Source of the DNA: Mustelus asterias
Taxonomy: Eukaryota
DNA length: 64,000 bases
Assembly (NCBI RefSeq): GCF_964213995.1
Contig: NC_135825.1
Coordinates: 51,088,001 to 51,152,000 of the forward strand
Direction: 5' to 3'
Below the pieces are notes generated by a model. The model was given only the letters and a program-made list of their open reading frames with translations, made no database searches and was not told the origin of the DNA. The position numbers were made by a program, and so were the translations under genes. How positions within the stretch are numbered: position 1 is the first letter of the stretch; each line of letters begins with the position of its first letter. Below are positions 9,156-59,795 of this stretch, piece after piece.

Positions 9156-10271
<1,116 letters not shown>

Positions 10272-21103: not shown

Positions 21104-21187
21104 AGAAATCTCACAACACCAGGTTAAAATCCAACAGGTTTATTTGGCAGCACAAGCTTTCGGAGACTCGCTCCTTCTTCAGGTGAG
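21104..21187 (-). mobile_element. Solo Penelope terminal-repeat fragment containing an intact hammerhead motif (21151-21187)
   Basis: Matches the terminal repeat of the Penelope copies at 37-46 kb; flanked by direct repeat gagaacatca (21094-21103 and 21185-21194). Confidence 0.8.
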
Positions 21188-21203
21188 AACATCAGTGGAG
21201 AAC

Positions 21204-21843
21204 ATGACCATCAATGGGGACGAAGTAGAAAGGATCAAGAGCTTCAAATTTTTAGATGTCCAGATCACCAACAACCTGACCTGGTCCTCCCATGCTGACA
21301 CTATAGTTAAGAAAGCCCACCAACACCTCTACTTTCTAGAAGACTAAGGAATTTTGGCATGTCAGCTCCGACTCTCACCAACTTTTACAGATGCACTATA
21401 GAAAGCATTCTTTCTGGTTGTATCACAGCTTGGTAAGGCTCCTGCTCTGTCCAAGACTGCAAGAAACTACAAAGGGTCATGAATGAAACCCAATCCATCA
21501 CGCAAATAAGCCTCCCATCCACTGACTCTATCTACACTTCCTGCTGCCTCGGAAAAGCAGCCAGCATAATTAAGGACCCCGTGCACCCCGGACATACTCC
21601 CTTTGGGAAAAAGATACACATACCAACTGATTCAAGAACAGCTTCTTCCCTGTAGCCATCACACTTTTGAACGGACTTACCTCGCATTAAGCTGATCTTT
21701 CTCTACACCCTAGCTATGACTGTAGCACTACATTCTGCACTCTCTCCTGTCCTTCTCTATGAATGATATGCTTTGTCTGTAAAGCATGCAAGAAACAATA
21801 CTTTTCACTGTATACTAACACATGTGACAATAATAAATCAAAT
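21204..21843 (+). mobile_element. Rex1/Babar-type LINE, 5'-truncated
   Basis: INGDEVERIKSFKFLDVQITNNLTWSSH..KKAHQHLYFL, FYRCTIESIL-like segment, tail catgtgacaataataaatcaaa. Confidence 0.85.
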
Positions 21844-24800
21844 ATTAACATTTTTATAAAGATCCACTGGGCTAACACCAACTGAATTTGAATGCTTCAA
21901 CTACCAGGATCTTTCGACCTTATTGCACAACTGACAAGACAGGTTGATCTGGCTTTAGCTTACTATAACTAAAACCTAAACAACAATTCTTTGGCAGATT
22001 ATTTTTACCAGATCTTTAACCCTAAAAATTGCAGTGGTAATGTTCAAATGCACATGTTTGACTTATTTATTTTGCAAAAGAAAAACAGGGTTTGCATTTA
22101 AGAAAGAAAAGTCCTGTCTACCCTAAAATATTGTGCTAATTGCATGCCATTAATCAGAGGATCAGATTTGTAACTCACCATACATGCAAATGAACTACTT
22201 CTCTTTTAGGTTCAGCTGAACAGTTATTTCAAGAGTTAGATCTGCAGGTGCAATCTGTTTCGTTCTATAAGTACTTTGTTGATGGGTAAGATGCCACATG
22301 CAGTTGAACTAATGAGCAGTTTAAGGTTAAATATGGCTCTGAAATCCTATGGGATTCTGTCCCAAGTTGAAAAATGTCAGAGATCAAAAGCTGCTGGTAT
22401 TACAGAAGGCCAAAATTCTGATCAAATTTTCACATTCCAGCAACCAAGTTGCGAACCCAACCAGTGTTAAATTCCAGCTTATTTTCAAGCCTCAAACTGA
22501 AACTACACATAATATGTGAAAAGAAACTGTCCTAACTGAAGACACAAAAGTTTCATGTAAAAAGCCATAAAAACACAATGGAGTCTTAATGTAATTTTGG
22601 TGCTGTGTTTATTGTTCAAATTGTACTGGACAAATACTGCTGACATTACCTTACTGCCTCTCTACAAAGCTATGTTTTGTTTTACATGTATCTGTGTGAT
22701 AAGTAATGTCGGTACAGAAAGCCACTTTTCAATTATTACTAATGGAAAGCATTACTCCTGCAGCAGCTCTTCTCAACTGATGATGGAGGACAGTTCGCAG
22801 CATGCCAGAGCAATCAAACACACTAGCATCACTGCTCTTACTGCATCATAAGTATATTGAAAAAAAGTACATCTTAGTAACAGAAATAGTGGGTCAATTT
22901 GCTCACCTCACTAAGTGTATTCCTTGGTATCAACTGATTATACAGCAACTCCCACCAGAGTCTGTATGCATTAATTAGCTCTCAAGTGTAACCCCTCCAC
23001 TTAAAGCCATTTTCTACAGACACTCCTGTGTATTTTCTCTCCATACTATTTATTTTTCCTATGTTTCCCTTTTCCTTGATACCCTGCCTAAGTAGTTATT
23101 CTTCAACTAGCAATTACAATAGCCTATTTGTAGACCATTCGACTGCAAGGGCATCACAGTGAAAATGAATCTGCACTTGTCCTAGATACACGTTCAAATA
23201 TTTTTGCATCTCTTTTCAGTGTCTGAAGTGAAAAGCCTGGTTTATGCTCGTCTCCTCAATCTGGAGGCATATTATAGTGCCTCTTCCTCCATTCAAGCAA
23301 AGATCACTAAGCTACCTGGATAGTTCCGAAGTTAATTTTGTAATTTCAGTTAAGAAACTTTTAAAACTGCAAAATGTGCACTACATATAATTGTAAGCTT
23401 ACATCAAATCAAAACGCTGTTTAACTATACTCCCTGAGGCAGACCTGTTATATAAATTATCAATGTCTCTAATCTAATAGCCATATTAAATGGCCAAAGT
23501 CCTTACAGTGTTATCCAGTATACAACCGCCTTTGTCTTTGATTAAGTTCTGCAGCCAAAATCACAAACATGACTCAAGCAACTGTACATGCGCATATCAC
23601 ATACGTGTAATCATTCTGATACTGGGATGATAAATGCGTGAATGAAATTTGTTTGGGACAGCCCAGCAGCCCCAGAGAATGGTGGACAACAATGTAGATT
23701 CTTTTATTCATAGAACTCAATCACTTTCAGATCTCGCAATCCCTCAAAAGAACTTTACAAGCAACTGCTTTATGTCTATGCAACAGAGAGGTCCACTGTA
23801 TCAGACATGAGCCTATATTAGGACCTTATTACAACAGGACCTGATAGCCTACTTCATTTGCTTACACAATTTGATTTACTTAATTTCCATTTTTTTAAAA
23901 ATCAGAATTTGTTCTTAATAACATACGTTCATCTCGGCACTCAATGTCACATTAGGCCGAATGAATTCAGCAGACTCCACTATTAGAATCTCTCAACTAT
24001 GCTAAACATAGCCACAGGCTGTGTAACCTTGTAAACTGTACACCCACCACAAGAAGAGCCTACAGAAAACACATATCTGATACGTGTTTTTCCAGATAAG
24101 TACAACGGTATATTTCCTGTAAAATACATATTATTGTCAACATTTATACAAAAGTAGTATTCTCGGATAGTGACAAGCTCCTGTTAATGCAGTAGAAACT
24201 TTATTCATAAATTACAAACTAACCACATTGGACACAAACACAGGTAGGCTTCAACAAGTACAATGAGAGCGAGTTCAGTGAAGAGAAACCCCCCAATAAC
24301 TGTTGTTTTTAACCTTACTCACGAAGTGACAAAGAACAGGGTTAAGTTGAATCCTTGCCTCTTGATAAACAATATATGAAAAACAATTTTAACTTCACAT
24401 TGTGCCTGAGAAAATGCATTCCAGCTGAATACTCGTCTTCCCCAGTCCAAGTCCAAGGGCAGCAATTTAATAACAACTGACAAGGGATATCCCCACCTGC
24501 TACATTGTCTCTCCCACAATCCGTTTAGGATTAATGTATATAAAAATGTATACAACCTGGCAAAGAAATCAATTGGTGATGCAAATGTTAATCCATAATA
24601 AACATATTTAATATCAGAGTTCAGTCATAACTCTCTATATGGTGTTACCTTTGGTCCGTAATCACTACTGTGTGTTGACCATATCACCAATAGTATTCCG
24701 TAAATATCATTTCCAAAATGCACAGAAGTTAGGTCAGCATTATCATAGTAAACTAAACTAGTTAACAAAATTCAGTGCTTAGATTTTGCATCCAAGATAA

Positions 24801-25783
24801 AACGTCTTGCTTGAATCTTTAAGTGCCAAATTGTCAGAATGAATCTCGAAAATAAACAGCTGAAATTCTCAACACAATATTTAAATAGCTGGATGAACAG
24901 ATACTCCCTGACTTCTCTGTAAGAGCAGAAAAACATTTATCATAAAATACCAAAGACACATGGGACTAATAACACCATTATCAGAGGCACGCTTCAATGC
25001 TATCTACACAAATGCTAAAAGGTATCAACACATATGTTCATGGTTTGAATGATTCTGGCTGACAAACTTATAAGCCTGGGTACAGAAAGACTTAAACAAG
25101 ATTGAAGGGTTCTCAAATTCAAGACTAGCTGCTCCATTGTTCACAGAATCAATACCTTACACTGAGTCTAGAAATCTATAACTGACCTGTGAGAAAAATC
25201 CAATAGTTCATAGATGCAAATCAACATTAAATGTTGAATTAAATCAACAGGAGCAAGGACTAAACCAGACCTCGAACAAAGACATGTACATTTACAGTAC
25301 ATTACAGAACGAACACATCTCAGCATCAAAGGGCACTAAAATGCTACGAAACTAGCCATCTATTTTCTCACTTGAGAAGGGGGGGGGTGTTGTGAAGGGA
25401 AATACCTCCTCCTCACTGGAACGACTTTGTTACAAATGACAAGTCAATGCGCCGAAAGTAGATCACTTTCCCATCTGATCCCAGCAAATCTAACAAATGG
25501 ATTGGGTGGGTGGGGGAAGGAGAAAGAGTTTGAAATCAGAGCTAGTAAATATGGCAACGATGCCCCCCCGGATCCCCCAATTAGGTAAAGTCAAGTCCTG
25601 ATCCGGAGAGAAGGGGGGGGGGGGGGGGGAAAGAGGGTGAGTGTGTGAGGGAAGGGGGTGTGTGTGGGGGGTGCGGATATTTTAAATGTCTCTTTAATCC
25701 CCTCTCTCCCCTCCCCCAACAGCTGATGGGGGGGGGGGGGGGGGGGCAGAGAGGGGTATTGCAATCGGTGGACGGAGGCTTAC

Positions 25784-26320
25784 CTGGTGGCAGAGCCCGG
25801 GGCTCAGTGCAGTGAGGGTGAGAGAAGGCCCGCACAGTCCTGAGGCCACCCAAGCATGTTGTTTGTTGCTGCTGCTCCTTCTTCCTCCTCCTGCTGCTGC
25901 TTCTTGCTCCTCTTCCCCCTCTGTTGAAGGGGAGGTGGTGGTGGGTTTTGGGGGGGGGGGGGAGGTGGGGACCCGGGCTTGGACTGGCTGGCTGGCTGTC
26001 AACAACAGGCGAGGTAGCGGGGCGGCAGGGTGTGAGAGTCAGGCCGCATGGCCTCGCTCCTGGCCCGGGCTGCTCTGTGGCCCGAGCTCGGCGATTCTCT
26101 CTCTCTCCTTTTTTTTCCTCCAATTGTTTTGTTTCTGCGCCCCCGGCGCGCGACCCGTGCGTGCGCGTGACCCGGGTCGCCGGGCTCGCGCACGTCGTCG
26201 CGCGCGCTCGAGGCCGCTCCGCTATCGAAGCGGTTGGAAACCAGCGGCGGCGGCGACGCCGAGTCTCCCCCTCATGAACGCATTGCCGAAATGAAATTAA
26301 CTCTTTCCCCCCCCCCAACC
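25784..26320 (-). other. HIPK1: Putative HIPK1 exon 1 (GC-rich 5' leader); 5' boundary uncertain
   Basis: Strong donor CCAG|gtaagc at 25784/25783 at the edge of the CpG island, on the same strand as exon 2; G-runs and CAG-rich leader; TSS not determinable from sequence. Confidence 0.65.
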
Positions 26321-26750
26321 ACCTTGGGCCGGCTATATAAAAATATATTTTGAAAAAAACATTAATAAAATTCGTTAAAACCGGTGGCACCGAGCGACAT
26401 GCTTTTCCCCTCCCCCCGCGCCCCTTCACACTCTCCCCTCCGCCTCTAGACTCCGACTCCAGCCAAGCCAAGTCGATCACCTACCGCATCGATTGGGAAT
26501 GTTGTGCCGGAAGTCCCGCCTTCTCCGCCCGGCCTCGCGCGCCGCCCACAGTGCGGGCTACTCCGATTGGCCCAGGCAACGCCCGTCTCCCCTTGCGTGA
26601 GCGGGTTCGAGCACGGACGTCATGACATCAGAGGAGGGGGGAGGCCGCACGCGCAACCGTGCGTGACTGCTTGGCAGCCGTGGTGCCGTCTGGGAGTTGG
26701 CGTTTCCCCCGCCCTCCCCTCACCGCCTCATCTCCCCAACGCACAATGAC
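25950..26750 (-). promoter_or_regulatory. CpG-island promoter of HIPK1
   Basis: Dense unmutated CpG in an otherwise AT-rich, CpG-poor region. CCAAT boxes (ATTGG at 26492 and 26566), ETS site CCGGAAGT 26507-26514, GC boxes 26515-26530, CRE-like GACGTCA-TGACATCA 26616-26630, TATA-like AT patch 26334-26350. Confidence 0.8.
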
Positions 26751-26784
26751 AGAGGCTGTGATGCTATCAGCTGTGTCAATGCAA

Positions 26785-26834
26785 TGAGTCACTTAGCAGC
26801 AGGGAGTTTTGACTCAACTCAATCACTTGACTCA
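26785..26834. promoter_or_regulatory. Cluster of three AP-1 consensus sites
   Basis: TGAGTCA 26785-26791, TGACTCA 26810-26816, TGACTCA 26828-26834. Confidence 0.5.
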
Positions 26835-27129
26835 TTTTTTTTTAAAAAAAGAAAGGCACTGAAAAATCAATTTAAAATTAGAAGTTAAAAATTTTAAATG
26901 ATAATTTTTAATTTTAATTTGCCACTTCATTCACATTGGGTTAGTCAACCCTACCCTTTCAAAAGCTTTGCATCAGTGCCTACTGATTAATCAGGGATAA
27001 GATGGTTTATCATCACTTTTGGTAATCACAACTGACATTCCCGAAGACTTCTCAGCCTCTCTGCAGCCTTCCACACAGCTGGCCATACCAACCTGCTCTT
27101 GTTCAGCTCTAGTCCCGGTTCCACTGTTA

Positions 27130-27645
27130 TAAAAGCAAAATACTGCGGTTGCTGGAATCTGAAACTGAAATAGAAAATGCTGGAAAATCTCAGCCGGTCT
27201 GACAGCACCTGTGGAGCGCCATTTACCGGTCCAGGCTGCGGGCGATCGAGGGGGCCGTCCATCCTGACTGTCTGCCCCTCTACCGCGGCTACGTTCGCGG
27301 CCAGGTGTCCCTGGAGAGGGAGCATGCGGTGTCCACGGGCGAGGTTGACGCTTTCCGCGCCCGCTGGGCACCGCAGGGGTTGGGGTGCATTATTGACCCT
27401 AATAATCACATTTTAATTTGATGTTTTTAAGTTTCCTTTGTACTTTGATTTCTGTTCGGGCTGTTCCCCCTCCTTTTTGGGGAGCTGCCCCTTTTACTTT
27501 GTCCTGATTTAATCTGAGTTTGTTTACTTGGTTTGGTTTGACCTGAAAAGAGGACAGCACCTGTGGAGAGATAATAGAGACAAAGTTCTGACAAAGGGTC
27601 ATCCAATGGCTCTGACGAAGGGTCATCCAGACTCAAAACGAATTG
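27130..27645. mobile_element. Short element of a second Penelope-like terminal-repeat family (27130-27216 and 27553-27645), split by a Tx1 insertion
   Basis: aaatactgcggttgctggaatctgaaa..gaaaatgctggaaaatctcagc..gacagcacctgtggagag followed by a degenerate hammerhead ctgacgaagggtcatccagactcaaaacg; family assignment from recall. Confidence 0.5.
27217..27552 (+). mobile_element. 5'-truncated Tx1-type (L1 clade) LINE with 16-bp TSD
   Basis: 27218-27421 translates AIYRSRLRAIEGAVHPDCLPLYRGYVRGQVSLEREHAVSTGEVDAFRARWAPQGLGCIIDPNNHILI*, resembling the Tx1 ORF2 C-terminus; T-rich 3' UTR; gacagcacctgtggag at 27201-27216 and 27553-27568. Confidence 0.8.
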
Positions 27646-29559: not shown

Positions 29560-30560
29560 CAATTTCCCCCCAATTCCTACACCATCCTGATTTTGCTGCT
29601 CCTTCATTCTTGTCAAGTCAAAATCCACAATACAAACACAGCCCTTATCAAAGTCAAAAATAGCACCCTATGTGACTTTGACAAACATAGAAGCATAGAA
29701 ACTAGGAACAGGAGTAGGCCATTCAGCCCTTCGATCCTGCTTGGCCACTCAATATGATCATGACAGATCCTCAATCTCATTGCCATTTTCCTGCTTTCTC
29801 CTCCATACCCCCTGATGCCATTAAAATCAAAAAAACTATCTCTTTCTTGAATACATTCAGTGACCTAGCCTCTAGAGCCTTCTGTGGTAGAGAATTCCAT
29901 AGGTTCACTACCCTTTGAGTGAAGAAACCTTTCCTCATCTCAGTCCTAAATGGTCTACCCTGCATCCTGAGACTGTGTCCCTGGTTCTAGATTCAAGACC
30001 CTGGTATCAGCCTAGCAGACCTCTGCTACACTCTGTCTTTGGTCTCTCTCCTTTTCTTAGGTAGAGAGAGACGAAAACTACACGCAATACTCCAGGTGTG
30101 GTCTCACCCAGGCACTGTATAACTGCAGTAAGATATCCCTCCTGCAGAACTAAAATATCTTCATCCTTTTCAACCTATCTGTAGCCTTTCACATGGCTGA
30201 CCACTCCATCCTCCTCCAACACTTCTCCACTGTCATCCAGCTGGGTGGGACTGATCTTGCCTGGCTCCATTCTTACCTAACTCATCCAAACCTGAGAGTC
30301 AATAGCAATGGCTTCTTTTCCTGCTCCCACACTGTTAACCTCTGGTGTCACCCAAGGATCTATCCTTGGTCCCTTCCTTTTTCTCATCCACATGTTGCTA
30401 CTTGGCAACATCATCCAAAACCACACTTTTCTCACCTACCTTGATGACACCCAGCTTTACCTCACCACCACCTCTCTTAACTTCTCCACTGTTGCTGAAT
30501 CATCAGACTGCTTATCCGATATCCAGTACAGTTCTGATGATCAGAAAATTCCTTCAGTTA
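29560..30560 (+). mobile_element. L2 LINE RT fragment interrupted by CR1 (29684-30150)
   Basis: HNTNTALIKV, AFHMADHSILL, TSGVTQGSILGPFLF, YLDDTQLYL. Confidence 0.85.
29684..30150 (-). mobile_element. CR1 LINE 3' fragment nested in L2
   Basis: FRTEMRKGFFTQRVVNLWNSLPQ; tail aacatagaagcatagaaactagg. Confidence 0.9.
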
Positions 30561-30561
30561 T

Positions 30562-30883
30562 GGGGCGGCACAGTAGCACAGTGGTTAGCACTGCTGCTTC
30601 ACAGCTCCAGGGACCTGAGTTCGATTCCCGGCTTGGGTCACTGTCGGTGTGGAGTTTGCACATTCTCCTTGTGTCTGCGTGGGTTTCCTCCGGGTGCTCC
30701 GGTTTCCTCCCACAGTCCAAAGATGTGCCGGTTAGGTGGATTGGTCATGGTAAATTGACCCTTAGTGTCAGGGGGATTAGTAGGGTAAATACATGGGGTT
30801 ACAGGGATAGGGCCTGGGTGGGATTGTTGTTGGTGCAGGCTGGATGGGTTGAATGGCCTCCTTCTGCACTGTAGGATTTCTAT
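30562..30883 (+). mobile_element. HE1-type V-SINE, full length
   Basis: ggggcggcacagtagcacagtggttagcactgctgcttcacagctccagggacctgagttcgattccc head, V core and CR1-like tail. Confidence 0.92.
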
Positions 30884-30949
30884 AATGTTGTTGTGAAGTG
30901 TCTTGGGACATTTGTGTTAATCAAATATAGGCTGGTGTAGCGGATGGTT

Positions 30950-32120: not shown

Positions 32121-32164
32121 AGCTGCTGGTTGGCACAAGTGAACAAGTCCCATTTCTTATGTTC

Positions 32165-34785: not shown

Positions 34786-35027
34786 ACCACCTCAACAAAG
34801 AGCTGGGATATCTCTGGCATGCATAGCTCTGACTTAGACTCCTGCTGCTGAGTGGCAGGACAGTCCTCCTTTAGTTCAAAGCTTAGACCGCTGCTTCACA
34901 AGTGATAATCAAAAGTGGTCCAGATCATTTTCAGTGGGACTAGCAAACTCAGAATAACTGTCCTCTAAAAAAAGGTGAATGTTGAGATTAAATTATCTGG
35001 CATGAATTCTAAATTTATATTCAGTTA

Positions 35028-37436
35028 CTGACAGTGAATTCAGAGTGTTCCTGATTACTATAAACTCTGATGGTGATTTCAGAGTGCCTCTGATCACTAT
35101 ACACTGTGACAGTGAATTCAGAGTGTTCCTGATCACTGTACACAGTGAATTAGAGTGATCTTGGTCACAATATACTGTGACAGTGAATTCAGAGTGCCTC
35201 TGATTGCGATACACTGACAGTGAATTCAGAGTGTTCCTGATCACTGTACACTGTGACAGTGAATTCAGAGTGATCTTGGTCACAATATACTGTGACAGTG
35301 AATTCAGAGTGCCTCTGATCACTATACACTGTGACAGTGAATTCAGAGTGATCTTGGTCACTATACACTGTGACAGTGAATTCAGAGTGATATTGGTCAC
35401 TATACACTGTGACAGTGATTTCAGAGTGCTTCTGATCACTATATACTGTGACAGTGAATTCAGAGTGCCTCTGATCACTATACACTGTGACAGTGAATTC
35501 AGAATGTTCCTGATCACTGTACACTGTGACAGTGAATTCAGAGCGATCTTGGTCACTATACACTGTGACAGTGAATTCAGAGTGTCTCTGATCACTGTAC
35601 ACTGTGACAGTGATTTCAGAGTGCCTCTGATCGCGATACGCTGCGACAGTGAATTCAGAGTGTTTTTGATCACTGTACACTGTGGCAGTGAATTCAGACT
35701 GATCTTGGTCACTATACACTGTGACAGTGATTTCAGAGTGCCTCTGATCGCGATACACTGTGACAGTGAATTCAGAGTGTTCCTGATCACTGTACACTGT
35801 GACAGTGAATTCAGAGCGATCTTGGTCACTATACACTGTGACAGTGAATTCAGAGTGTCTCTGATCACTGTACACTGTGACAGTGATTTTAGAGTGCCTC
35901 TGATCGCGATACACTGTGACAGTGAATTCAGAGTGTTCCTGATCACTGTACACTGTGACAGTGAATTCAGAGCGATCTTGGTCACTATACACTGTGACAG
36001 TGAATTCAGAGTGTCTCTGATCACTGTACACTGTGACAGTGATTTCAGAGTGCCTCTGATCGCGATACGCTGCGACAGTGAATTCAGAGTGTTTTTGATC
36101 ACTGTACACTGTGGCAGTGAATTCAGACTGATCTTGGTCACTATACACTGTGACAGTGATTTCAGAGTGCCTCTGATCGCGATACACTGTGACAGTGAAT
36201 TCAGAGTGTTCCTGATCACTGTACACTGTGACAGTGAATTCAGAGTGTCTCTGATCACTGTACACTGTGACAGTAATTTCAGAGTGCCTCTGATCGTGAT
36301 ACACTGTGACAGTGAATTCAGAGTGTTCCTGATCACTGTACACTGTGACAGTGAATTCAGAGTGTTCCTGATCACTGTACACTGTGACAGTGAATTCAGA
36401 GCGATCTTGGTCACTATACACTGTGACAGTGAATTCAGAGTGTCTCTGATCACTGTACACTGTGACAGTGAATTAGAGTGATCTTGGTCACTATACACCG
36501 TGACAGTGAATTCAGAGTGTTCCTGATCACTGTACACTGTGACAGTGAATTCAGGGTGTCTCTGGTCACTATACACTGTGACAGTGAATTCAGAGTGATC
36601 TTGGTCACTATACACTGTGACAGTGAATTCAGAATGTTCTTGATCACTGTACACTGTGACAGTGAGTTCAGAGTGATCTTGGTCACTATACACTGTGACA
36701 GTGAATTCAGAGTGTCTCTGGTCACTATACATTGTGACAGTGAACTCAGTGTGTTCCTGATCACTGTACACTGTGACAGTGAATTCAGAGTGTTCCTGAT
36801 CACTGTACACTGTGACAGTGAATTAGAGTGATCTTGGTCACTATACACCGTGACAGTGAATTCAGAGTGTTCCTGATCACTGTACACTGTGACAGTGAAT
36901 TCAGAGTGTTCCTGATCACTGTACACTGTGACAGTGAATTCAGAGTGATCTTGGTCACTATACACCGTTACAGTGAATTCAGAGTGTTCCTGATCACTGT
37001 ACACTGTGACAGTGAATTCAGAGTGATCTTGGTCACTATACACCGTGACAGTGAATTCAGAGTGTTCCTGATCACTGTACACTGTGACAGTGAATTCAGT
37101 GTGTTCCTGATCACTGTACACTGTGACAGTGAATTCAGAGTGATCTTGGTCACTATACACTGTGACAGTGAATTCAGAGTGTTCCTGATCAATGTACACT
37201 GTGACAGTGAATTCAGAGTGTTCCTGATCACTGTACACTGTGACAGTGAGTTCAGAGTGATCTTGGTCACTGTACACTGTGACAGTGAATTCAGAGTGTC
37301 TCTGGTCACTGTACATTGTGACAGTGAATTCAGAGTGTTCCTGATCACTGTACACTGTGACAGTGAATTCAGAGTGTTCCTGATCACTGTACACTGTGAC
37401 AGTGAGTTCAGAGTGTCTCTGGTTACGATACACTGT
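35028..37436. repeat. 39-bp minisatellite, about 62 units, resuming at 38162-38213 and 40005-40099
   Basis: Unit CACTGTGACAGTGAATTCAGAGTG(TTCCTGAT/ATCTTGGT/CCTCTGAT/TCTCTGRT)CACTRTA; 13-codon period explains the long repetitive ORFs. Confidence 0.98.
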
Positions 37437-38161
37437 AAGAAGTCTCACAGCACCAGGTTAAAGTCCAACAGGTTTATTTGGTAGCACAAGCTTTCGGAGT
37501 GTCACTCCTTCTTCAGGTGAGTGAGGAGTTGTGTTCACAAACAGGGTATATATAGACACAAACTCAATTTACAAGATAATGTTTGGAATGCGAGTTTTTA
37601 CAGGTAACCAAGTCTTAAAGGTACAGACAATGTGAGTGGAGAGAGGGTTAAGCACAGGTTAAAGAGATGTGTATTGTTGCCAGCCAGGACAGTTAGTGAG
37701 ATTTTGCAAGCCCAGGCAAGTTACAGTGGGGGTTACAGATAGTGTGACATGAACCCAAGATCCCGGTTGAGGCCGTCCTCATGTGTGTGAAACTTGGCTA
37801 TCAGTCTCTGCTCAGTGACTCTGCGTTGTCGGGTGTTGTGAAGGCCGCCTTGGAGAACGCTTACCCCATGATCAGAGGCCGAATGCCCGTGACCGCTTAA
37901 CCCTCTCTCCACTCACATTGTCTGTACCTTTAAGACTTGATTACCTGTAAAGACTCGCATTCCAACCATTATTTTGTAAATTGAGTTTGTGTCTTTATAT
38001 GCCCTGTTTGTGAACAGAACTCCCAATTACCTGACGAAGGAGCAGCGCTCCGAAAGCTAGTGGCTTTTGCTACCAAATAAACCTGTTGGACTTTAACCTG
38101 GTGTTGTGAGACTTCTTACTGTGTTTACCCCAGTCCAACGCCGGCATCTCCACATCATGAC
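37437..38161. mobile_element. Penelope foldback insertion (minus arm 37437-37897 with GIY-YIG C-terminus, plus arm 37895-38161)
   Basis: Two inverted terminal repeats, each with a hammerhead motif; imperfect TSD tacgatacactgt (37424-37436) / tactatacattgt (38162-38174). Confidence 0.88.
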
Positions 38162-38213
38162 TACTATACATTGTGACAGTGAATTCAGAGTGTCTCTGGT
38201 CACTATACACTGT

Positions 38214-40004
38214 CGAGGGCATCCTGAAACCCATTGTACAAAGAACCTCCAGCTTCTGTCGCGACACTACGGACTTCCTACAGAAACGCAGCACACATGG
38301 AGCAGTTGAACCAGGAGCAATCCTCGTCACAATGGGTGTCTCGGCACTCTACACCAGCAACCCCCACAATGATGGCATTGCTGCAACTGCCTCAGTACTC
38401 AATGCCGACAACTGTCAATCTCCAGATGCAATTCTACAACTCATCCGTTTCATCCTGGACCACAACGTCTTCACCTTCAACAACCAGTTTTTCTTCCAGA
38501 CACACGGAACAGCCATGGGGACAAAATTCACACCTCAATATGCCAACATCTTCATTAACAGGTTCGAACAAGACCTCTTGACCACACAGGACATTCAACC
38601 GGCCCTATACACTAGATACAGCGATGACATTTTCTTCCTTTGGACTCATGGCGAACAATCAGTGAAACAGCTATATGATGTCATCAACAAGTCCCATCCC
38701 ACCATCAGACTCACATGGATTACTCTCTGGAATCAGTTGCATTCTTGGACACATGCATCTCCATCAAGGATGGTTACCTCAGCACTTCACTGTACCGTAA
38801 GCCCATGGATAACCTCACAATGCTCCACTTCTCCAGCTTCCACCCTAAACACATTAAAGAAGCCATCCCCTATAGACTAGCCCTCCATATACACAGGATC
38901 TGCTCAGATGAGGAGGATCGCAACAGACACCTACAGACGCTAAAAGATGCCCTCATAAGAACAGGATATGGCGCTCGATCCATCACTCGACAGTTCTGAC
39001 GTGCCACACCTCCTCAGAAGACAAACACGAGACACGGCAGACAGAGTACCCTTCGTTGTCCAGTACTTCCCCAGAGCAGAGAATCTACGACATCTTCTCC
39101 AGAGCTTTCAACATGTCATCGATGAAGACGAACATCTCGCCAAGGCCATCCCCACACCCCCACTTCTTGCCTTCAAACAACCGCACAACCTCAAACAGAC
39201 CATTGTCCGCAGCAAACTACCCAGACTTCAGGAGAACAGTGACCACGACACCACACAGCCCTGTCACAGCAACCTCTGCAAGATGTGCCGGATCATCAAC
39301 ACGGATGCCATCATCTCACATGAGAACACCATCCACCAATACACGTTACATACTCTTGCGACTAGGCCAACATTGTCTACCTGATACGCTGCAGGAAAGG
39401 ATGTCCCGAGGCATGGTACATTGGGGAGACCATGCAGACGCTACGACAACAAATGAATGAACACCACTCGACAATCACCAGGCAGGAGTCTTCCTTTCCT
39501 GTCGGGGAACACTTCAGCAGTCATGGGCATTCAGCCTCTGATCTTCAGGTAAGCGTTCTCCATGGCGGCCTTCACAACATACGACAACGCAGAATCGCCG
39601 AGCAAAAACTGATAGCCAAGTTCCGCACACGAGGATGGCCTCAACTGGGATCTTGGGTTCATGTCACACTATCTGTAACCCCCACGACTTGCCTGGGCTT
39701 GCAAAATCTCACTAACTGTCCTGTCTGGAGACAATACACATCTCTTTAACTTGTGCTTAAACCTCTCTCCAATCACATTATCTGTACCTGTAGAGACTTG
39801 ATTACCTGTAAAGACTCGCATTCCAACCATTATCTTGTAAATTGAGTTGTGTCTATGTATGCCCTGTTTGTGAACACAACTCTTCACTCACCTGAAGAAA
39901 GAGCAACACTCCGAAAGCTTGTGCTACCAAATAAACTTTAACCTGGTGTTGTGAGACTTCTTACTGTGCTTACCCCAGTCCAACGCCGGCATCTCCACAT
40001 CATG
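38214..40004 (+). mobile_element. Penelope-like element (Neptune-type), 5'-truncated, RT + GIY-YIG pseudogene with 3' terminal repeat
   Basis: RDTTDFLQK, GTAMGTKFTPQYANIF, YTRYSDDIFF, FLDT, Cys linker PCHSNLCKMC, GIY-YIG region with YIGET and VGEHF; frameshifts and stops; TSD actatacactgt (38202-38213 / 40005-40016). Confidence 0.93.
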
Positions 40005-41602: not shown

Positions 41603-41797
41603 AGTCCAAAGATGTGCGGGTTAGGTTGATGGGCCATGTTAAAAATTGCCCCTTAGTGTCCTGAGATGCGTAGGTTAGAGGGATTAGTGGGTAAAATATG
41701 TAGGGATATGGGGGTAGGGCCTGGGTGGGATTGTGGTCGGTGCAGACTCGATGGGCCGAATGGCCTCTGTACTGTAGGGTTTCTATGATTCTATGAT
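41603..41797 (+). mobile_element. HE1-type V-SINE, 3' half
   Basis: agtccaaagatgtgcgggttaggttgat...gtgcagactcgatgggccgaatggcct...tttctatgattctatgat. Confidence 0.9.
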
Positions 41798-42084: not shown

Positions 42085-43585
42085 CAGTAAGAAGTCTCAC
42101 AACACCAAGTTAAAGTCCCACAGGTTTATTTGGTAGCACAAGCTTCTGGACTGTCGCTCCTTCTTCAGGTGAGTGAGGAGTTGTGTTCACAAACAGGGCA
42201 TATAGAGACACAAACTCAATTTACAAGATAATAGTTGGAATGCGAGTCCTTACAGGTAATCAAGTCTTAAAGGTACAGACAATGTGAGTGGAGAGAGGAT
42301 TAAGCACAGGTTAAAGAGGTGTGTATTGTCTCCAGCCAGGACAGTTAGTGAGATTTTGCAAGCCCAGGCAAGTCGTGAGGGTTACAGATAGTGTGACATG
42401 AACCCAAGATCTCGGTTGAGGCCGTCCTTATGTGTGCAGAACTTGGCTATCAGTTTCTGCTCAACGATTCTGCGTTGTGTGTCGTGAAGGCTGCCTTGGA
42501 GAACGCTTACCTGAAGATCAGAGGCTGAATGCCCGTGACTGCTGAACAGAACACTCCTGTCTGGTGATAGTCGAGCGGCGTTCATTCATCCATTGTCGTA
42601 ACGTCTGCATGGTCTCCCCAGTGTACCATGCCTCAGGGCATTCTTTCCTGCAGCGTATCAGGTAGACAACATTGGCCGAGTCGCAAGAGTATGTACCGTG
42701 TACCTGGTGGATGGTGTTCTCACGTGAGATGATGGCATCCATGTCAATGATCCGGCACATCTTGCAGAGGTTGCTGTGGCAGGGTTGTGTGGTGTCGTGG
42801 TCACTGTGCTCCTGAAGTCTGGGTAGTTTGCTGCGGACAATGGTCTGATTGAGGTTGTGCGGTTGTTTGAAGGCAAGAAGTGGGGGTGTGGGGATGACCT
42901 TAGCGAGATGTTCGTCTTCATCAATGACATGTTGAAGGCTCCGGAGAAGATGCCGCAGCTTCTCCGCTCCGGGGAAGTACTGGACGATGAAGGTTACTTT
43001 GTCCGCCATGTCCCATGTTTGTCTTCTGAGGAGGTTGGTGTGGTTTTTCGTTGTGGCACTTCGGAACTGTCTATCGATGAGTCGAGCGCCATATCCTATT
43101 CTTATGAGGGTGTCTTTCAGCATCTGTAGGTGTCTGTTGCCATCCTCCTTATCTGAGCAGATCCTGTGCATACGGAGAGCTTGTCCGTAGGGAATGGCTT
43201 CTTTAACGTGTTTAGGGTGGAAGCTGGAGAAGTGGAGCATTGTGAGCTTGCAGTACAGTGAAGTGCTGAGGTGACCGTCCTTGATGGAGATGTGCGTGTC
43301 CAAGAATGCAACCGATTCCGGAGAGTAGTCTATGGTGAGTCTGATGGTGGGGTGGAACCTTTTGATGATATCATATAGTTGTTTCAGTGATTGTTCGCTA
43401 TGAGTCCAAAGGAAGAAAAAGTCATCGATGTATCTAGTGTATAGTGTCGGTTGAAGGTCCTGTGCGGTGAAGAGGTCTTGTTCAAACCTGCGCATGTTGG
43501 CATATTGAGGTGTGAATTTGGTCCCTATGGCTGTTCCATGTGTCTGGATGAAGAACTGGTTGTTGAAGGTGAAGAAGTTATGGTC
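42085..43585 (-). mobile_element. Penelope (Neptune-type) inverted arm: RT C-terminal half + GIY-YIG + terminal repeat
   Basis: ORF 42518..43732 contains GTAIGTKFTPQYAN, YTRYIDDFFF, PCHSNLCKMC, NVVYLIRCRKECPEAWYTGET. Confidence 0.93.
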
Positions 43586-46341
43586 ATCAGGCGAATGAAG
43601 CTGCGGGAGCTCTTCCACAAACCCCAAGAGGCCAACAGTGAACACAATGAGACAGCCAATGAACCGGAACAGCCGACAGAGAGATCTGCGGTGCAGCAAC
43701 CCGAAGAGGAAAGAGTTGAATCGGGGCGGCACGGTAGCACAGTGGTTAGCACTGCTGCTTCACAGCTCCAGGGACCTGGGTTCGATTCCCGGCTTGGGTC
43801 ACTGTCTGTGTGGAGTTTGCACATTCTCCTCGTGTCTGCGTGGGTTTCCTCTGGGTGCTCCGGTTTCCTCCCACAGTCCAAAGATGTGTGGGTTAGGTTG
43901 ATTGGCCAGGTTAAAAATTGCCCCTTAGAGTCCTGAGATGCATAGGTTAGAGGGATTAGCGGGTAAATATGTAGGGGTAGGGCCTGGGTGGGATTGTGGT
44001 CGGTGCAGACTCGATGGGCCGAATGGCCTCCTTCTGCACTGTAGGATTTCTATGATTTCTATGATTGGACTCCTCCGGAAGGCCGCTGCCCTTGCCTTGA
44101 CTTGTATGCCCAAGCCAGCAGGAGGTGTGTCAATGCCAGATTCATCAGCCGCACTCACAAGCCAGCCGTGAATGTCACCAAGCACAACGCAACACCATCC
44201 ACGCTCCCAAGACCAACCGCAACATTGTCATCAAACCAGCAGACAAAGGAGGGGCCACTGTCATACTGAACAGAACGGATTACTACAAAGAAGTGTACCG
44301 ATGACTGAAGAACAAGGAACACTACAGACAGTTACCCACAGATCCGACCAAAGAACACATCCATCAACTCAACAGACTGATCAAGACCTTTGATCCGGAC
44401 CTTCAGAGCACCCTCCGTGCTCTCATCCAACGTACTCCCCGCGTTGGAGTTCTCTACTGCCTTCCGAAGGTATACAAGGCAAACACACCCGGCCGTCCCA
44501 TCGTACCAGGCAATGGGACCCTGTGTGAGAACATCTCCGGCTACGTCGAGGGCATCCTGAAACCCATTGTACAAAGAACCCTCAGCTTCTGTCACGACAC
44601 TATGGATTTCCTACAGAAACTCAGCACACATGAAGCAGTTGAACCAGGAGCACTCCTCGTCACAATGGATGTCTCGGCACTCTACACCAGCATCCCTCAC
44701 AAAGATGGCATTGCTGCAACTGCCTCAGTATTCAACGCCACAATTGCCAATCTCCAGATGCAATTCTACAACTCATCTGCTACACCCTGGACCACAACGT
44801 CTTCACCTTCAACAACCAGTTCTTCATCCAGACACACGGAACAGCCATGGGGACCAAATTCGCACTTCAATATGCCAACATTTTCATTAACAAGTTCGAA
44901 CAAGACCTTCAACCGATGCTATACACTAAATACACCGATGACATTTTCTTCCTTTGGACTCATGGCGAACAATCAGTGAAACAACTATATGATGACATCA
45001 ACAAGTTCCATCCCACCATCAGAGTCACCATGGACGACTCTCTGGAATTGGTTGCATTCTTGGACACACGCATCTCCATCAAGGACGGACACCTCAGCAC
45101 TTCGTTATACTGCAAGCCCACGGATAACCTCACTATGCTCCACTTCTCCAGCTTCCACCCTAAACACGTTAAAGAAGCCATCCCCTATGGACAAGCCCTC
45201 CGTAAACACAGGATCTGCTCAGATAAGGAGGATGGCAACAGACACCTACAGATGCTGAAAGACACCCTCATAAGAACAGGATATGGCGCTCGACTCATCG
45301 ATCGACAGTTCCGACGTGCACAGCGAAAAACCGCACTGACCTCCTCAGAAGACAAATACAGGACACGGCGGACAGAGTACCCTTCGTCGTCCAGTACTTC
45401 CCTGGAGCGGAGAAGCTACGGCATCTCCTCCGGAGCCTTTAACATGTCATCGATGAAGACGAACATCTCGCCAAGGCCATCCCCACACCCCCACTTCTTG
45501 TCTTTAAACAACCGCACAACCTCAAAACAGACCATTGTCCACAGCAAACTACCCAGACTTCAGGAGAACAGTGACCATGACACCACACAACCCTGCCACA
45601 GCAACCTCTGCAAGACGTGCCAGATCATCGACACGGATGCCATAATCTCACGTGAGAACACCATCCACCAGGTACACGGTACATACTCTTGCAACTCGGC
45701 CAACGTTGTCTACCTGATACGCCGCAGGAAAGGATGTCCCGAGGCATGGTACATTGGGGAGACCATGCAGACGCTACGACAACGGATGAATGAGCACCGC
45801 TCGACAATCACCAGGCAGGAGGGATCTCTTCCTGTCGGGGAACACTTCAGCAGTCACGGATTTTCAGCCTGTGATCTTCGGGTAAGCGTTCTCCAAGGCG
45901 GCCTTCATGACACACGACAACGCAGAATCGCGGAGCAAAAACTGATGGCCAAGTTCCACACACATGAGGACGGCCTCAGCCAGGTTCTTGGGTTCATGTC
46001 ACACGATCTGTAACCCCCACGACTTGCCTGGGCTTGCAAAATCTCACTAACTGTCCTGGCTGGAGACAATACACACCCATTTAACCTGTGCTTAACCCTC
46101 TTTCCACTCACATTGTCTGTACCTTTAAGACTTGATTACCTGTAAAAACTCGCATTCCAACCATTATCTTGTAATTGAGTTTGTGTCTGTATATACCCTG
46201 TTTGTGAACACAACTCCTCACTCACCTGAAGAAGGAGTGACACTCTGAAAGCTTGTGCTACGAAATAAACCTGTTGGACTTTAACCTGGTGTTGTAAGAC
46301 TTCTTACTGGGCTTACCCCAGTTCAACGCTGGCATCTCCCC
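43584..46341 (+). mobile_element. Penelope (Neptune-type) forward arm: N-terminal region, RT, GIY-YIG, terminal repeat; interrupted by a V-SINE
   Basis: RRMKLRELF, WTPPEGR (after the SINE), IKPADKGG, MDVSALYTSIPH, YTDDIFF, NVVYLIRRRKGCPEAWYIGET, VGEHF; several frameshifts. Confidence 0.93.
43722..44065 (+). mobile_element. HE1-type V-SINE, full length, nested in Penelope
   Basis: Complete head, core and tail with tttctatga repeats; splits the Penelope ORF. Confidence 0.93.
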
Positions 46342-46559
46342 TTCAAGTCCAACACCAGGACTAGTTGGTCATGGAAGGAGTGTCCATAATGTGGTTTTTA
46401 CAGGCTGATAACCAACTTGGGAATCCTTCCACTGTTCCCTAAAAGGAAAAAAAAAGTGTGTGAAGATACAATTTATTTTATTTCGGGAATGTAAAGTCCC
46501 TAAGACAAACAATTTATCCCAATTTATACTGAAAGGGACTATCAGATGGTTGCTTGCCA

Positions 46560-47215
46560 AAGAGGCACAATAAATTGTACGGGGAGTCCTGCTGTGGTGA
46601 GTGCAGATAGGCCTTCAATGAGTCTGTGGATCGGACATTCTTCTATGATGTGGTGTATAGTTTGCTCTCTCCCACAGGTTCATAGGAGGCTGGCACTAAA
46701 GTTTATTTATTATTGTCACAATTAGGCTTACATTAACACCGCAATGAAGTTACTGTGAAAATCCTCTAGTCGCCACACTCCAGCACCTGTTCAAGTACAC
46801 CGAAGGAGAATTTAGCATGGCCAATGCTCCTAACCAGCGCATCTTTTGGACTGTGGTAGGAAACCGGAACACCCAGAGGAAACTCACGCAGACAAGGGGA
46901 GAATATGCAGACTCCTAACAGACAGTGGCCCAAGCCGGGAATTGAACCCGGGTCCCTGGAGCTGTGAGGCAGCAGTGCTAACCACTGCGCCACCGTGCTG
47001 CCCTTTGGTACCCCATTGGTTGGCCAAGCAGAGTCCATGGCCAGTCCTGAACCTGATGAGGGTGAACCACTCTTCCCTTGGAAGGTTGAAACCAGGCAGC
47101 TGTTGGGTTGGGTTTGAGACCAGATACTTGTTTGTCATTTCCAATGATTTCCGTTCATTTGTCCAGGTGGAATTTGCGTTGAAGTTCTGTGTGGGGTTGG
47201 CCTTCTGATGGGATT
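46560..47215 (-). mobile_element. RTE-type LINE 3' end interrupted by a V-SINE
   Basis: NPTQQLPGFNLPREEWFTLIRFRTGHGLC followed, beyond the SINE, by CGREQTIHHIIEECP. Confidence 0.7.
46697..47003 (-). mobile_element. V-SINE tail type B, full length
   Basis: Same head and core as HE1 but with tail ...gtggcgactagaggattttcacagtaacttcattgcggtgttaatgtaagcc..tgtgacaataataaataaac. Confidence 0.9.
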
Positions 47216-53405: not shown

Positions 53406-53440
53406 AATAAAAAAAGTCTAGGAATGTTCTAAATCTGTTT

Positions 53441-53734
53441 CATAGGATCATCGAATCCCTAAATTGCAGAAGGAGGCCATTCGGCCCATCGAAACTGCAC
53501 TGACAACAATACCACCAGGTATACCCCGTAACCCAATGCATTTACCCTGCTGATCCCCCTGATACTAAGGGGAAAGTTACCATGGCCAATCAACCTAACC
53601 CACACAACTTTGGAGTGTGGGAGGAAACCGGAGCACCCAGAGGAAACCCACGCGGACAGGGGGAGAACATGCAAACTCCACATAGACAGTCACCCAAGAC
53701 TGGAATTGAACCTGGGTCCCTGGCAGTGCTAACC
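53441..53734 (-). mobile_element. HE1-type V-SINE
   Basis: Reverse complement of the V core and CR1-like tail; head partly deleted. Confidence 0.88.
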
Positions 53735-55317: not shown

Positions 55318-55608
55318 CCTCTAGCTTCGAGAGCTCACCAACTGCCCTTAATTGAGCAGTGAATGCCAATTGATCCCCCATGAAAATTCCAATGAGTGAC
55401 TGTTTCCCTTTCGGGATCAGGAAAACAGTCCCAACTTCTGTTCCTTACACCAGGAGGGAAATTCCTGCCCTACATGTTGGAATATTTCCAAGGAGCTCCC
55501 TCCTCATGGGTATCCGGAGCTTGAATGTTGCAGTATTTCCAAACTTCTTTCGCGATGTAAGTCACTAACTGGGGCAGAATGCTGCTCATGTCTGGCTATT
55601 AAAATCAG

Positions 55609-56352
55609 GATGTGGAGATGCCGGCGTTGGACTGGGGTAAACACAGTAAGAAGTTTAACAACACCAGGTTAAAGTCCAACAGGTTTATTTGGTAGCAAAA
55701 GCCACACAAGCTTTCGGAGCTGCAAGCCCCTTCTTCAGGTGAGTGGGAATTCTGTTCACAAACAGAGCTTATAAAGACACAGACATTGGGGAAACTATGC
55801 AGACGCTGCGACAACGGATGAATGAACACCGCTCGACAATCACCAGGCAAGACTGTTCTCTTCCTGTTGGGGAGCACTTCAGCGGTCACGGGCATTCAGC
55901 CTCTGATATTCGGGTAAGCGTTCTCCAAGGCGGCCTTCGCGACACACGACAGCGCAGAGTCGCTGAGCAGAAACTGATAGCCAAGTTCCGCACACACGAG
56001 GACGGCCTCAACCGGGATATTGGGTTTATGTCACACTATTTGTAACTCCCACAGTTGCGTGGACCTGCAGAGTTTCACTGGCTGTCTTGTCTGGAGACAA
56101 TACACATCTTTTTAGCCTGTCTTGATGCTCTCTCCACTCACATTGTTTCGTTTCTTAAAGACTTGATTAGTTGTAAGTATTCGCATTCCAACCATTATTC
56201 ATGTAAATTGAGTCTGTGTCTTTATAAGCTCTGTTTGTGAACAGAATTCCCACTCACCTGAAGAAGGGGCTTAGAGCTCCGAAAGCTTGTGTGGCTTTTG
56301 CTACCAAATAAACCTGTTGGACTTTAACCTGGTGTTGTTAAACTTCTTACTG
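55609..56352. mobile_element. Penelope foldback insertion (minus terminal repeat + plus GIY-YIG C-terminus and terminal repeat)
   Basis: IGETMQTLRQRMNEHRS..VGEHFSGHGH..GLNRD; perfect 12-bp TSD tattaaaatcag (55597-55608 / 56353-56364). Confidence 0.92.
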
Positions 56353-56731
56353 TATTAAAATCAGTGCAATGCTGGGACATGGGCTAATTTTTGGACTCCA
56401 TTGTTCAGATCAATTCTACCATCTCCAGCTTTCCTGAATGAAGGCTCAGCACAGGTTGAGAATGAAAGTTGGTTTTATATGGTCTATAATATAACAGGTG
56501 GACAGTGCCTTAACCCAGAGACCCCGGCATGAGCCGTGCCTTCAGAGAGGATGTATCTCTCAGGCTCTCCCTCATTTGTTCTCTCTTCCTTTCTCCTGCT
56601 TCCAATTTAGTCAAATTTTACCTCAATATGGCCAATATTGGGTTTAAAAATAGGATACTGAATGGATGTCCACATTATTTGTTTTTCCAATCTTAAAATG
56701 GTTCAAGATTGAACGGCCCAAATTCTGCTGC

Positions 56732-57081
56732 AGGGAACGGCAGCACAGTGGTTAGCACTGTTGCCTCACAGCACCAGGGACCTGAGTTCAATACTGACCT
56801 TGGGTAAGTGTCTGTGTGGAGTTTGCACGTTGTCTGCATGGGTTTCCTCCGGGTGCTCCGATTTTTTCCCACACTCCAAAGATGTGCAGGTTAGACAGAT
56901 TGGCCATACTAAATTGCCCCTTAGTTTCACAGTAACTTCATTGCAGTGTCTGTTAGTGCCAGAGGATTTATCAGGGTAAGTATGTGGGGTTATGGGGATA
57001 GGGCCTGGGTGGGATTGTTGTTGGTGCAAGCTCGATGGGCCAAATGGCCTCCTTCTGCACTGTAGGGATTTTATGATTCTA
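56732..57081 (+). mobile_element. HE1-type V-SINE with an internal piece of the type-B tail
   Basis: Full head, core and CR1-like tail, with tttcacagtaacttcattgcagtgt at 56925-56949. Confidence 0.85.
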
Positions 57082-57365
57082 TCAACCCTGCTTGTTTGAT
57101 TTGTTTGTGCATGTTTTGGTTTATAAATTTTTCTCCCACAAAGTTGGAAGAGAGGCAAGCTGATGACAGGGAGGAGGCCACAGAGCAGTGGAAATCTTGA
57201 TCAATAATGGGACAAAGAGTACATCTCCAAAGAGTTGAGAAATAAACAAGGGAGATAGGAAGGAGGGTAAATTAGACTGAGTGAATTAAATACAAATTAA
57301 ATCCAGAGAGGGAAATAAACGGAAAGCAAGGATTAGATTATGAGAGAGGAAGAGACAGAAAGGAA

Positions 57366-57843: not shown

Positions 57844-58394
57844 TGAGGAAAACATGATTTTAGTTTCAAATTTGGTATTGCTGAGGTTATGGGGATAGGG
57901 CCAACAATAATTGCAAACTTGAGAGAAAGAAACTTCACACTATTAATGGTTCATTTTTGTGCAGCAGAGGTCAATGAGAAGTCATTAACAATTTTCACCC
58001 TGTTAGAAGGGTACTTAACTTTTTTGTCAAGTTTAATAGGTAACTATCAGCCATGATCGTGATGAATGGCGGAGCAGGCTCAAAGGGCCAAATGGCCTCC
58101 TCCTATCTTCTATGTTTCTAATGTGCAAATACAGCAGAAAGTAAGGGAGAGCTCAAAGGTGAGATGCTGTTTTTGCTAATGGTGGCATGATGCAAATCAT
58201 CCTGAACTCACAGATGGTTGCTTCCTTGTTGTAGGTTTCTGGTGGTATTGCATTAACGATGGGAATGTGTCATTCACATATCATTACTTTTTCAGCCAAT
58301 CCTGGATCTATAGCACGTGCTGTGCTGCAACATTGCCACAAGTAGAAATTTAGATTTCCATACTGGCTCAGTGCAGGTTCAGGGTGACATTCCG

Positions 58395-59350
58395 AAGGAG
58401 TGATTTTCCAACCTTGCCACGCCTGGTGCACACTGCGCCGATCTCGGAAAATAGCGTGCAGGCCTAAATTTGGTTTTGCACTCAGCGCCGAATGGTGCCA
58501 AATCACCCCAATCCCTTTCTAATGGTGTAAACCAGATTGTGCCCAGAAAGGTGTTAGGCCAATTAGTATTGTTAAAGTGGTATTTAAATATGCATAGCCC
58601 GTTCGACGCCGGATTCTTCCTGCTCCCAGGACCTTCCAACCTTTGGGTGTGGCACGAAACCAGCGAGAATCACTATTGGTCTCCACTAACAGAGACCAGG
58701 TGCAACGGCCCACCTGAGACCCTGGCAGTGCCAATTGGACACTGCCAGTATGTCAGGGGCAGTGCCAAGGGTTGATGCCCGAGTGGGTGTGGGGATTTAG
58801 AGGGGACTATGACAGGGGACAATGATGGGGGACTATGCTGGGGTCTATGCAGAGGAGGCTATGCAAGGGGTCTATGAAGGGTAGGCTATGCAGGGGAGCA
58901 TGCAGGGGAGGCTATGCAGGGAGGTCTATGAAGGATAGGCTATGCAGGGGGTCTATGCACAGGGCCATGAAGGTGGAACATGAAGGGGGACATGTCAGAG
59001 TTCATGTTGGGAGACCCATTGGGAGTGTCCCAATGCCGGCGTTATGCGTCGGGAAGAGGTGGAGAAACATGCCTCTGTTGAGGGGTGGGGGGGCCCGATT
59101 TCTGTGAGGGGAGGGGTCTCCCAGTGCACTGTGAGATTAGGCGCCCTTCCAAAACTGTGCCCAATTGCTTTGCAGCTGGGCTCACCAATGTGTTTCGGCC
59201 CTGACTCCCAGAACAGTCGTGCAACTCGCCAGTCTCCCAGAAAATGACTGACTGTGGGGTGGTTGCGGTACAGACCACGCCAGACAGACTGGCATGGATC
59301 ACGCCGGTATTATCACCGTTATGACACATTTTTTGGAGGAAAATTCCATT
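58395..59350. mobile_element. Putative non-autonomous DNA transposon with an internal G-rich minisatellite (ctatg core, about 58805-58965)
   Basis: GC-rich block bounded by loosely inverted ends (gattttcc ... ggaaaattcc); similar short elements at about 2390-2560, 50300-50410 and 61687-61815. Confidence 0.4.
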
Positions 59351-59443
59351 CTGACTATTGTTCATTCCATCTAAATTGAAAACGTCACATTGTGCCAGAG
59401 TCTTGTTATTTATTTACTGAGGCTGTGTGGCTTATCCCAAATT

Positions 59444-59795
59444 ATGATGTGGAGATGCCGGCGTTGGACTGGTGTAAACACAATAAGAAGTCTCACAACA
59501 CCAGGCTAAAGTCCAACAGGTTTATTTGGTAGCAAAAGCCACTAGCTTTCGGAGCGCTGCCCCTTCGTCAGGTAAGTGGGAGTTCTGTTCACAAACAGGG
59601 CATATAAAGACACAAACTATAATAAAATATAAACACAATATAAAGACACACATTGAGTTTGTGTCTTTATATGCCCTGTTTGTGAACAGAACTCCCACTT
59701 ACCTGACGAAGGAGCAGCACTCCGAAAGCTAGTGGCTTTTGCTACCAAATAAACCTGTTGGACTTAACCTGATGTTGTGAGACTTCTTACTGTGT
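59444..59795. mobile_element. Miniature palindromic Penelope derivative (two inverted terminal repeats, no coding sequence)
   Basis: Arms about 59480-59617 and 59654-59795 are reverse complements; one hammerhead motif per arm; TSD ttatcccaaa (59432-59441 / 59796-59805). Confidence 0.9.

Follow-up and report, generated by a model that had tools for sequence, protein, structure and literature searches.

Minimal hammerhead ribozymes have been described from the terminal repeats (pLTRs) of metazoan Penelope-like elements (PLEs), where, in the motif survey of Cervera and De la Pena (2014, PMC4209133), they are of type I, with a CUGANGA box followed by one extra base, a G10.1-C11.1 pair, a palindrome at 15.2-16.2, an NUH cleavage triplet, a short stem I and opposite-strand copies 100-700 bp apart. 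The same features are found in a 64,000-nt stretch of the genome of the shark Mustelus asterias (contig NC_135825.1, positions 51,088,001 to 51,152,000; hereafter the window), whose ten motifs were picked out in an earlier reading of the letters alone (the sequence-only reading). That reading placed them in a class already known, which the survey bears out, the painted turtle motif (its Fig. S3) having the same G-C-U-U arrangement as that of the shark. No cartilaginous fish appears among the 56 motifs listed there, and its counts of about 4,000 for coelacanth and 9,000 for Xenopus compare with at least 116,021 intact cores in the shark. As far as that account goes, activity in vitro is low and in vivo evidence absent, and the relevant part of a later survey (PMC8557442) calls the function of PLE hammerheads unclear. 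What is new here is the shark family, together with the copies of one of its subfamilies that start at the predicted cut, a hint of cleavage in vivo. We hold it to be probable that the ten motifs are minimal hammerheads from the terminal repeats of an abundant shark PLE whose copies here are truncated, and that the ribozyme of the active element cuts a minority of germ-cell template RNAs. A larger claim, for which we would put the chances only slightly above even, is that the genome serves as a base-resolution fossil record, in which some 3,000 copies of one subfamily would derive from hammerhead-cut RNA and a larger class from RNA with an uncut start, with pairs of long- and short-tailed copies reflecting one stereotyped insertion reaction. 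If true, this would amount to in vivo evidence of cleavage by a minimal PLE hammerhead, from one of the densest ribozyme loads known. A literature search, with Lunse 2017 and Repbase outside its range, turned up neither shark PLE hammerheads nor copy ends that coincide with a cut.

The element itself has relatives at several distances. Neptune-clade PLEs with an endonuclease (EN+; Arkhipova 2006 as summarised in Craig et al. 2021, PMC8557442) likewise join a reverse transcriptase (RT) through a CX2-5CxxC linker to a C-terminal GIY-YIG domain with CCHH, and the same summary gives them an inverted 5′-truncated partner and a tail of 30-40 bp at one end only; the targets it names are microsatellites, whereas the shark element has clear target duplications of 12-14 bp in mixed sequence. 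PAc of Anolis carolinensis (Frangieh et al. 2024, PMC11167929) likewise shows, in the portions of that study drawn on here, two RT starts that define its tail, cutting and extension of both DNA strands and a hammerhead near the start of its open reading frame (ORF). It differs in being of the Poseidon clade and in its geometry: the cut falls within the ORF, with RT starting 111-118 nt into it, against a cut 97-99 nt ahead of the start codon in the shark element, whose long end is at the start codon itself. Non-LTR retrozymes (Cervera and De la Pena 2020, PMC7229834; Li et al. 2026, 10.64898/2026.07.22.740005) likewise consist of type I hammerheads at very high copy number, derived from or related to PLE pLTRs. 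As there described, they are head-to-tail tandem repeats that give circular RNAs, whereas the shark copies are truncated ends of an ORF-bearing element and mostly lie head to head, without the head-to-tail tandem hammerhead units lacking an ORF that mark a retrozyme. With 126,247 canonical hammerhead motifs reported for the axolotl, the shark count is no record, though it is more than 10 times the published PLE counts.

The figure of 116,021 comes from matches to an exact intact-core pattern in the 3.68-Gb genome (at least 31 per Mb), against none when the pattern is read backwards. An Rfam scan of the window with E up to 1 detected no hammerhead family and only weak miRNA-like matches on hairpins. 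Frequencies were taken from 159 evenly spaced 10-kb stretches (1.59 Mb) with a ribozyme-free anchor downstream of the motif, itself without a match in 300 kb of shuffled DNA. This sample holds 135 anchors, or 0.85 per 10 kb, which scales to some 310,000 repeat ends genome-wide, along with 84 whole motifs, 62 of them with catalytic boxes and NUH triplet intact, scaling to about 190,000 and 140,000 respectively. Ten motifs in 64 kb puts the density in the window on the order of the genome average. Several of the 150 scored RT matches sit in open frames of 912-917 codons, and a whole 892-aa ORF was read from its ATG at five fetched loci. Three of these have an upstream motif, predicted to be cut 97-99 nt short of the ATG, as well as another on the same strand 3,016-3,096 nt downstream. 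The 892-aa protein matches RVT_1 above cut-off. It gives no Pfam GIY-YIG match of its own; its VVY-x-YIG and C, C, H, H residues align with those of relatives that match PF01541, and a C-x4-C-xx-C linker lies between RT and endonuclease in window and intact copies alike. A single ORF with RT and C-terminal GIY-YIG with CCHH, pLTRs, the inverted 5′-truncated partner and the one-end tail together agree with what is expected of an EN+ PLE. The best named protein relatives are shark (80-92% identity), then turtle and echinoderm at about 41-44%, with turtle proteins at 42-44% among the nearest outside sharks. The Neptune assignment made by the sequence-only reading is in part secured: ORF and pLTR geometry establish a PLE, and the linker is that of Neptune, though PMC8557442 gives it as common to Neptune and Nematis. 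As only Neptune and Poseidon PLEs are found in vertebrates in a recent survey (Li et al. 2026, 10.64898/2026.07.22.740005, in the part concerned), the Neptune clade is likely. Very recent activity is also indicated by head-to-head pairs of 4-6 kb that are close to full length and have open frames of 830-910 codons. A young family with more than 100,000 copies offers the numbers for reading from copy ends whether, and for what purpose, minimal PLE hammerheads cut in vivo, and it names an exact bond, an RNA start and RT starts as testable sites.

Starts of copies were counted with a pattern that sets four letters foreign to the element before 20 of its own at each position. For the subfamily with a 6-bp helix II, 1,083 copies start at the scissile bond, 243 at -1, 124 at -4 and 7 at -9 (3,390, 771, 439 and 45 after correction for allowed letters), and with the subfamily tag required there are 970 at 0 versus 178 at +3 (corrected, 3,037 versus 550). 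The -1 count is accounted for by chance T fillers alone, for which 299 were predicted. Starts at the cut amount to about 6% of the 47,463 tagged copies, and in the evenly spaced sample 4 of 135 ends fall within one base of it. All 20 loci picked by hand from the first 39 matches listed were true 5′ ends, 17 with an inverted partner. Stem I microhomology was considered as a source of the spike and set aside, such junctions being excluded by the pattern and absent from the 20 fetched loci; internal deletions, seen in none of the 20, were likewise rejected, and a perfect double-cut palindrome, which the pattern also excludes, is not the source. The copy 5′ ends thus give indirect support to the predicted cut position, and the copies of this subfamily that start there are likely a record of ribozyme cutting in germ cells. 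Where copies start at the cut, the junction is often filled with a short A-rich stretch that duplicates letters of the neighbouring arm, as in the templated insertions of end joining, and in 13 of the 17 pairs the arm that starts at the cut is the long-tailed one.

Several points weigh against cutting as the explanation. In a second subfamily the spike is weak, at 270 for 0, 70 for +3 and 220 for -2 (corrected, 1,415, 403 and 708, a two- to 3.5-fold excess), and one palindromic junction makes up about 40% of its listed matches. About a third of the first subfamily's listed 0-matches are, by eye, ambiguous between 0 and +1, starts at +1 and +2 not being separately countable, and the control patterns permit different letters, with that for -4 penalising A. 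Folding models favour neither stem I nor, in nearest-neighbour energies, a strand-swapped dimer, and the monomer rarely forms stem I. A block of 35 nt downstream of the ribozyme, which holds the anchor, is as invariant as the core, and in contigs from two of four other organisms U4 is changed to C at about 9-10% of depth. With PAc, the part of the study bearing on this (PMC11167929) records no RNA-seq reads ending at the cut, and ribozyme mutants that still insert normally in vitro; the same study, in reporting protein-assisted cleavage and internal RT starts, also lends the cutting interpretation support. Finally, the assignment of an RNA start, dealt with below, draws on copy ends only.

Of these points, the weak spike of the second subfamily and the PAc results speak for the foremost alternative, in which selection would act on the motif as an RNA structure or a protein-binding site, with cutting in vivo rare or absent and the surplus of ends at the predicted cut due to RT stalling or to repair bias at the junction. 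Low published activity in vitro (PMC4209133) and the success of Naiad PLEs without hammerheads, as PMC8557442 describes them, also suit it. However, the edge of the spike is sharp to a single base between 0 and -1, and stalling on a structure should leave ends at the 3′ foot of stem I, whereas the count at +3 is five times below that at 0. Also awkward for it is that the master lineages obey catalytic rules, with N7 free and H17 not G, and on this balance we regard it as a minority possibility, though the most serious one.

The evidence on that score is from position counts in the 84 whole motifs, four of an original 88 having been dropped for a shifted register. An extra A stands between A9 and G10.1 in all 84. 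The palindrome is well kept (15.2 G in 83, 16.2 C in 82), and the first pair of stem I shows compensatory change, being C-G in 61 and U-A in 15. N7 is T in 31, A in 30 and C in 23, while H17 is T in 42, C in 21, A in 20 and G in one; genome-wide, G17 has 893 matches versus 116,021 for H17 (G about 0.8%), and in the contigs of other organisms H17 is changed only to C or T. N7=A falls in two separate groups of a tree built from the flank only. The CpG at C11.1-G12 is mutated in 28 of the 84 (C to T in 16, G to A in 12). Otherwise, copy by copy, 9 of 756 non-CpG core letters are changed versus 42 of 2,352 in conserved flank (p=0.32), and individual copies decay neutrally. A shared non-CpG variant, by contrast, is found at none of 11 obligatory core positions versus 48 of 127 upstream columns (38 long copies; p about 0.009). 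With the free positions N7 and H17 varying and the obligatory ones not, selection on the core in the master lineages is supported by these alignments.

Here the claims of the sequence-only reading divide. In master lineages the core is conserved above the upstream sequence; in single copies it decays no more slowly than the conserved flank. Loop II does vary, as claimed, but partly through CpG decay; helix II is usually of 5-6 bp, so that part of what was taken for loop is a CpG-prone fifth pair. The first pair of helix II is G-C in 65 and G-U in 15 of 83, and the pairing-compatible changes that had been pointed to are real for the third pair (A-U, G-U or G-C), while CUCU for CUCC is CpG decay and not compensation. 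The cleavage triplets CUU and CUA are present as described, to which genome-wide sampling adds CUC in 21 of 84. The identification as a minimal type I hammerhead, helix III being no more than the palindrome AGCU, fits the published PLE consensus. In some subfamilies a competing hairpin covers the cut site in thermodynamic folding, and motifs lying as a pair on opposite strands are unable to dimerise within one transcript. The invariant block (window 38068-38115, present in all copies and across all subfamilies) precedes the short RT start, and is a candidate site for binding of the element protein or for priming.

A larger class of 5′ ends lies outside the core. In the sample, 26 of 135 fall at -30 to -40 from the cut, a density of 2.4 per nt versus 0.8 downstream, 0.7 just upstream and less than 0.1 further up. 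Eight pairs have both arms in the pile-up, so that about 18 insertions are represented. Genome-wide, 722 copies of the 6-bp-helix subfamily start at -37 and 89 at -47. The reference set for mapping was poor in copies of old subfamilies, which could shorten some alignments. Splicing was rejected as a cause, there being no conserved AG and, by eye, inverted partner or target rather than exon upstream. The pile-up, to judge from these ends, is probably run-off at the RNA start, and the site resembles an initiator. Drosophila Penelope is described as having an internal promoter in its pLTR.

In the mechanism proposed, transcription would start about 6 nt before the core of the first motif, the element protein would prime reverse transcription at two tail sites, and the cDNA would run off the RNA 5′ end, be it an uncut start or a cut. 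By analogy with other PLEs, cutting may require two motifs paired through AGCU together with help from the element protein, and may serve to cut tandem or read-through transcripts down to single units. There being more ends just 5′ of the core than at the cut, most templates were probably uncut. A long copy can arise only where the downstream motif of its template RNA was left uncut or was religated, which makes cleavage partial and dispensable for insertion; the ribozyme is read through in most copies that extend as far as it, so copying does not depend on cleavage either. Religation is central to a different proposal, put forward in PMC4209133, that both motifs of a unit are cut and the RNA ligated to a circle, which would be the main template for long copies with linear cut RNAs as by-products. 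Complete elements do have two same-strand motifs 3,016-3,096 nt apart, and ligation would rebuild the motif, making the long copies indistinguishable. No 5′ end would be favoured on a circle, whereas the observed ends accumulate at -30 to -40 and at 0, and we consider this route unlikely.

The 3′ ends fall in two fixed classes, 69 short and 60 long among the 135, and 90 of the 135 anchors are in candidate head-to-head pairs. Of 45 such pairs, 39 remained after removal of six with a target duplication below 8 bp, and 35 of the 39 have one long and one short arm, most duplications being of 12-14 bp; the rule holds in all four window pairs. An origin of the arms from two different RNAs is not supported in general, the arms being in the same subfamily class in 17 of 20 informative pairs (14 of the 34 compared were uninformative) and their 5′ ends often near-equal. 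Both twin priming on a single RNA and fold-back copying of a single cDNA are consistent with this structure. The one-sided tail matches the relevant description in PMC8557442 and the two RT starts that in PMC11167929.

That the short copies form a non-autonomous family of their own, like a retrozyme or a short interspersed element (SINE), with its own circular RNA or a regulatory role at the host HIPK locus, would suit the very high copy number, the many stumps with a common start just before the core, the one sense copy in a likely first HIPK intron and the retrozymes reported in part of the literature from one chondrichthyan, but is very improbable given that stumps occur in every subfamily with lengths continuous into the ORF, are mostly head to head rather than tandem, decay neutrally as individual copies, and are no denser in the window than about the genome average.

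In the window itself, re-reading of the sequence placed all ten motifs, with strand, where they had been reported, nine with CUGANGA and GAAA intact. As separate lines of evidence the ten do not stand, since self-comparison and junction reading derive them from six insertions: one solo stump, four head-to-head pairs and one 5′-truncated copy. Target duplications of 12-13 bp are present wherever the flanks are unique. No window copy has an intact ORF, the pieces being broken RT and endonuclease fragments. By themselves these ten copies are ordinary repeat debris, and genomic stumps are neutral leftovers.

Insertion 1 (21103..21187, -) is a solo 85-nt stump, beginning 5 nt 5′ of C3, with ribozyme (21151..21187, -; intact core, CUU triplet) and short tail, in a 12-bp duplication (21090-21101 and 21194-21205). 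Insertion 2 (37435..38160), a head-to-head pair inside a 39-bp satellite, has a left arm (-) with short tail and a right arm (+) with long tail, of different subfamilies; its motifs at 37485..37519 (-) and 38028..38062 (+, CUA triplet) have intact cores, and the tandem repeat in its flanks makes its duplication ambiguous. Insertion 3 (38214..40004, +), also in the satellite, is 5′-truncated, with a broken RT-endonuclease ORF, 3′ untranslated region, ribozyme (39889..39923, +; core intact, with an A-C mismatch in helix II) and long tail, flanked by 12 bp at 38202-38213 and 40005-40016. The long head-to-head pair of insertion 4 (42085..46345) consists of a left arm (42085-43585, -) with short tail, whose motif (42137..42171, -) has a damaged GAAA box reading AGAA, and a right arm (43586-46345, +) with long tail, broken RT, C-x4-C-xx-C linker and GIY-YIG region, whose motif (46223..46257, +) has its core intact, CpG decay having turned C11.1 into T. 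A SINE at about 43722-44062 interrupts this right arm and, since it breaks the PLE ORF, was inserted later. Insertion 5 (55609..56352), from the subfamily with a 6-bp helix II, is a head-to-head pair too, its left arm long-tailed and its right arm short-tailed, with intact cores at 55705..55741 (-) and 56255..56291 (+) and a 12-bp duplication (55597-55608 and 56353-56364). Insertion 6 (59445..59795) is a short pair with an AT-rich spacer, again with long tail on the left arm and short on the right, intact cores at 59540..59574 (-) and 59700..59734 (+), and a 13-bp duplication (59432-59444 and 59796-59808).

As to the surroundings, 9156-10250 (-) belongs to a HIPK-family kinase, as a large first coding exon, and a GC-rich/CpG island lies upstream at 25500-27500; insertion 1 lies between exon and island, in sense orientation within the likely first intron. 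A fragment at 4163-4810 (-) resembles the C-terminal part of a CR1/L2-type LINE (long interspersed element) ORF and has no Pfam RT match. The 39-bp tandem satellite (34990-37430, 38160-38213 and 40005-40100), with more than 50 units and a higher-order periodicity, received two PLE insertions. SINE-like copies, of one or two repeats and resembling shark HE1/V-SINE, lie at 910-1137, 1714-2043, 7314-7507, 30552-30886, 41599-41797, 43722-44062, 46697-47003, 53437-53725, 56734-57085 and 63685-64000.

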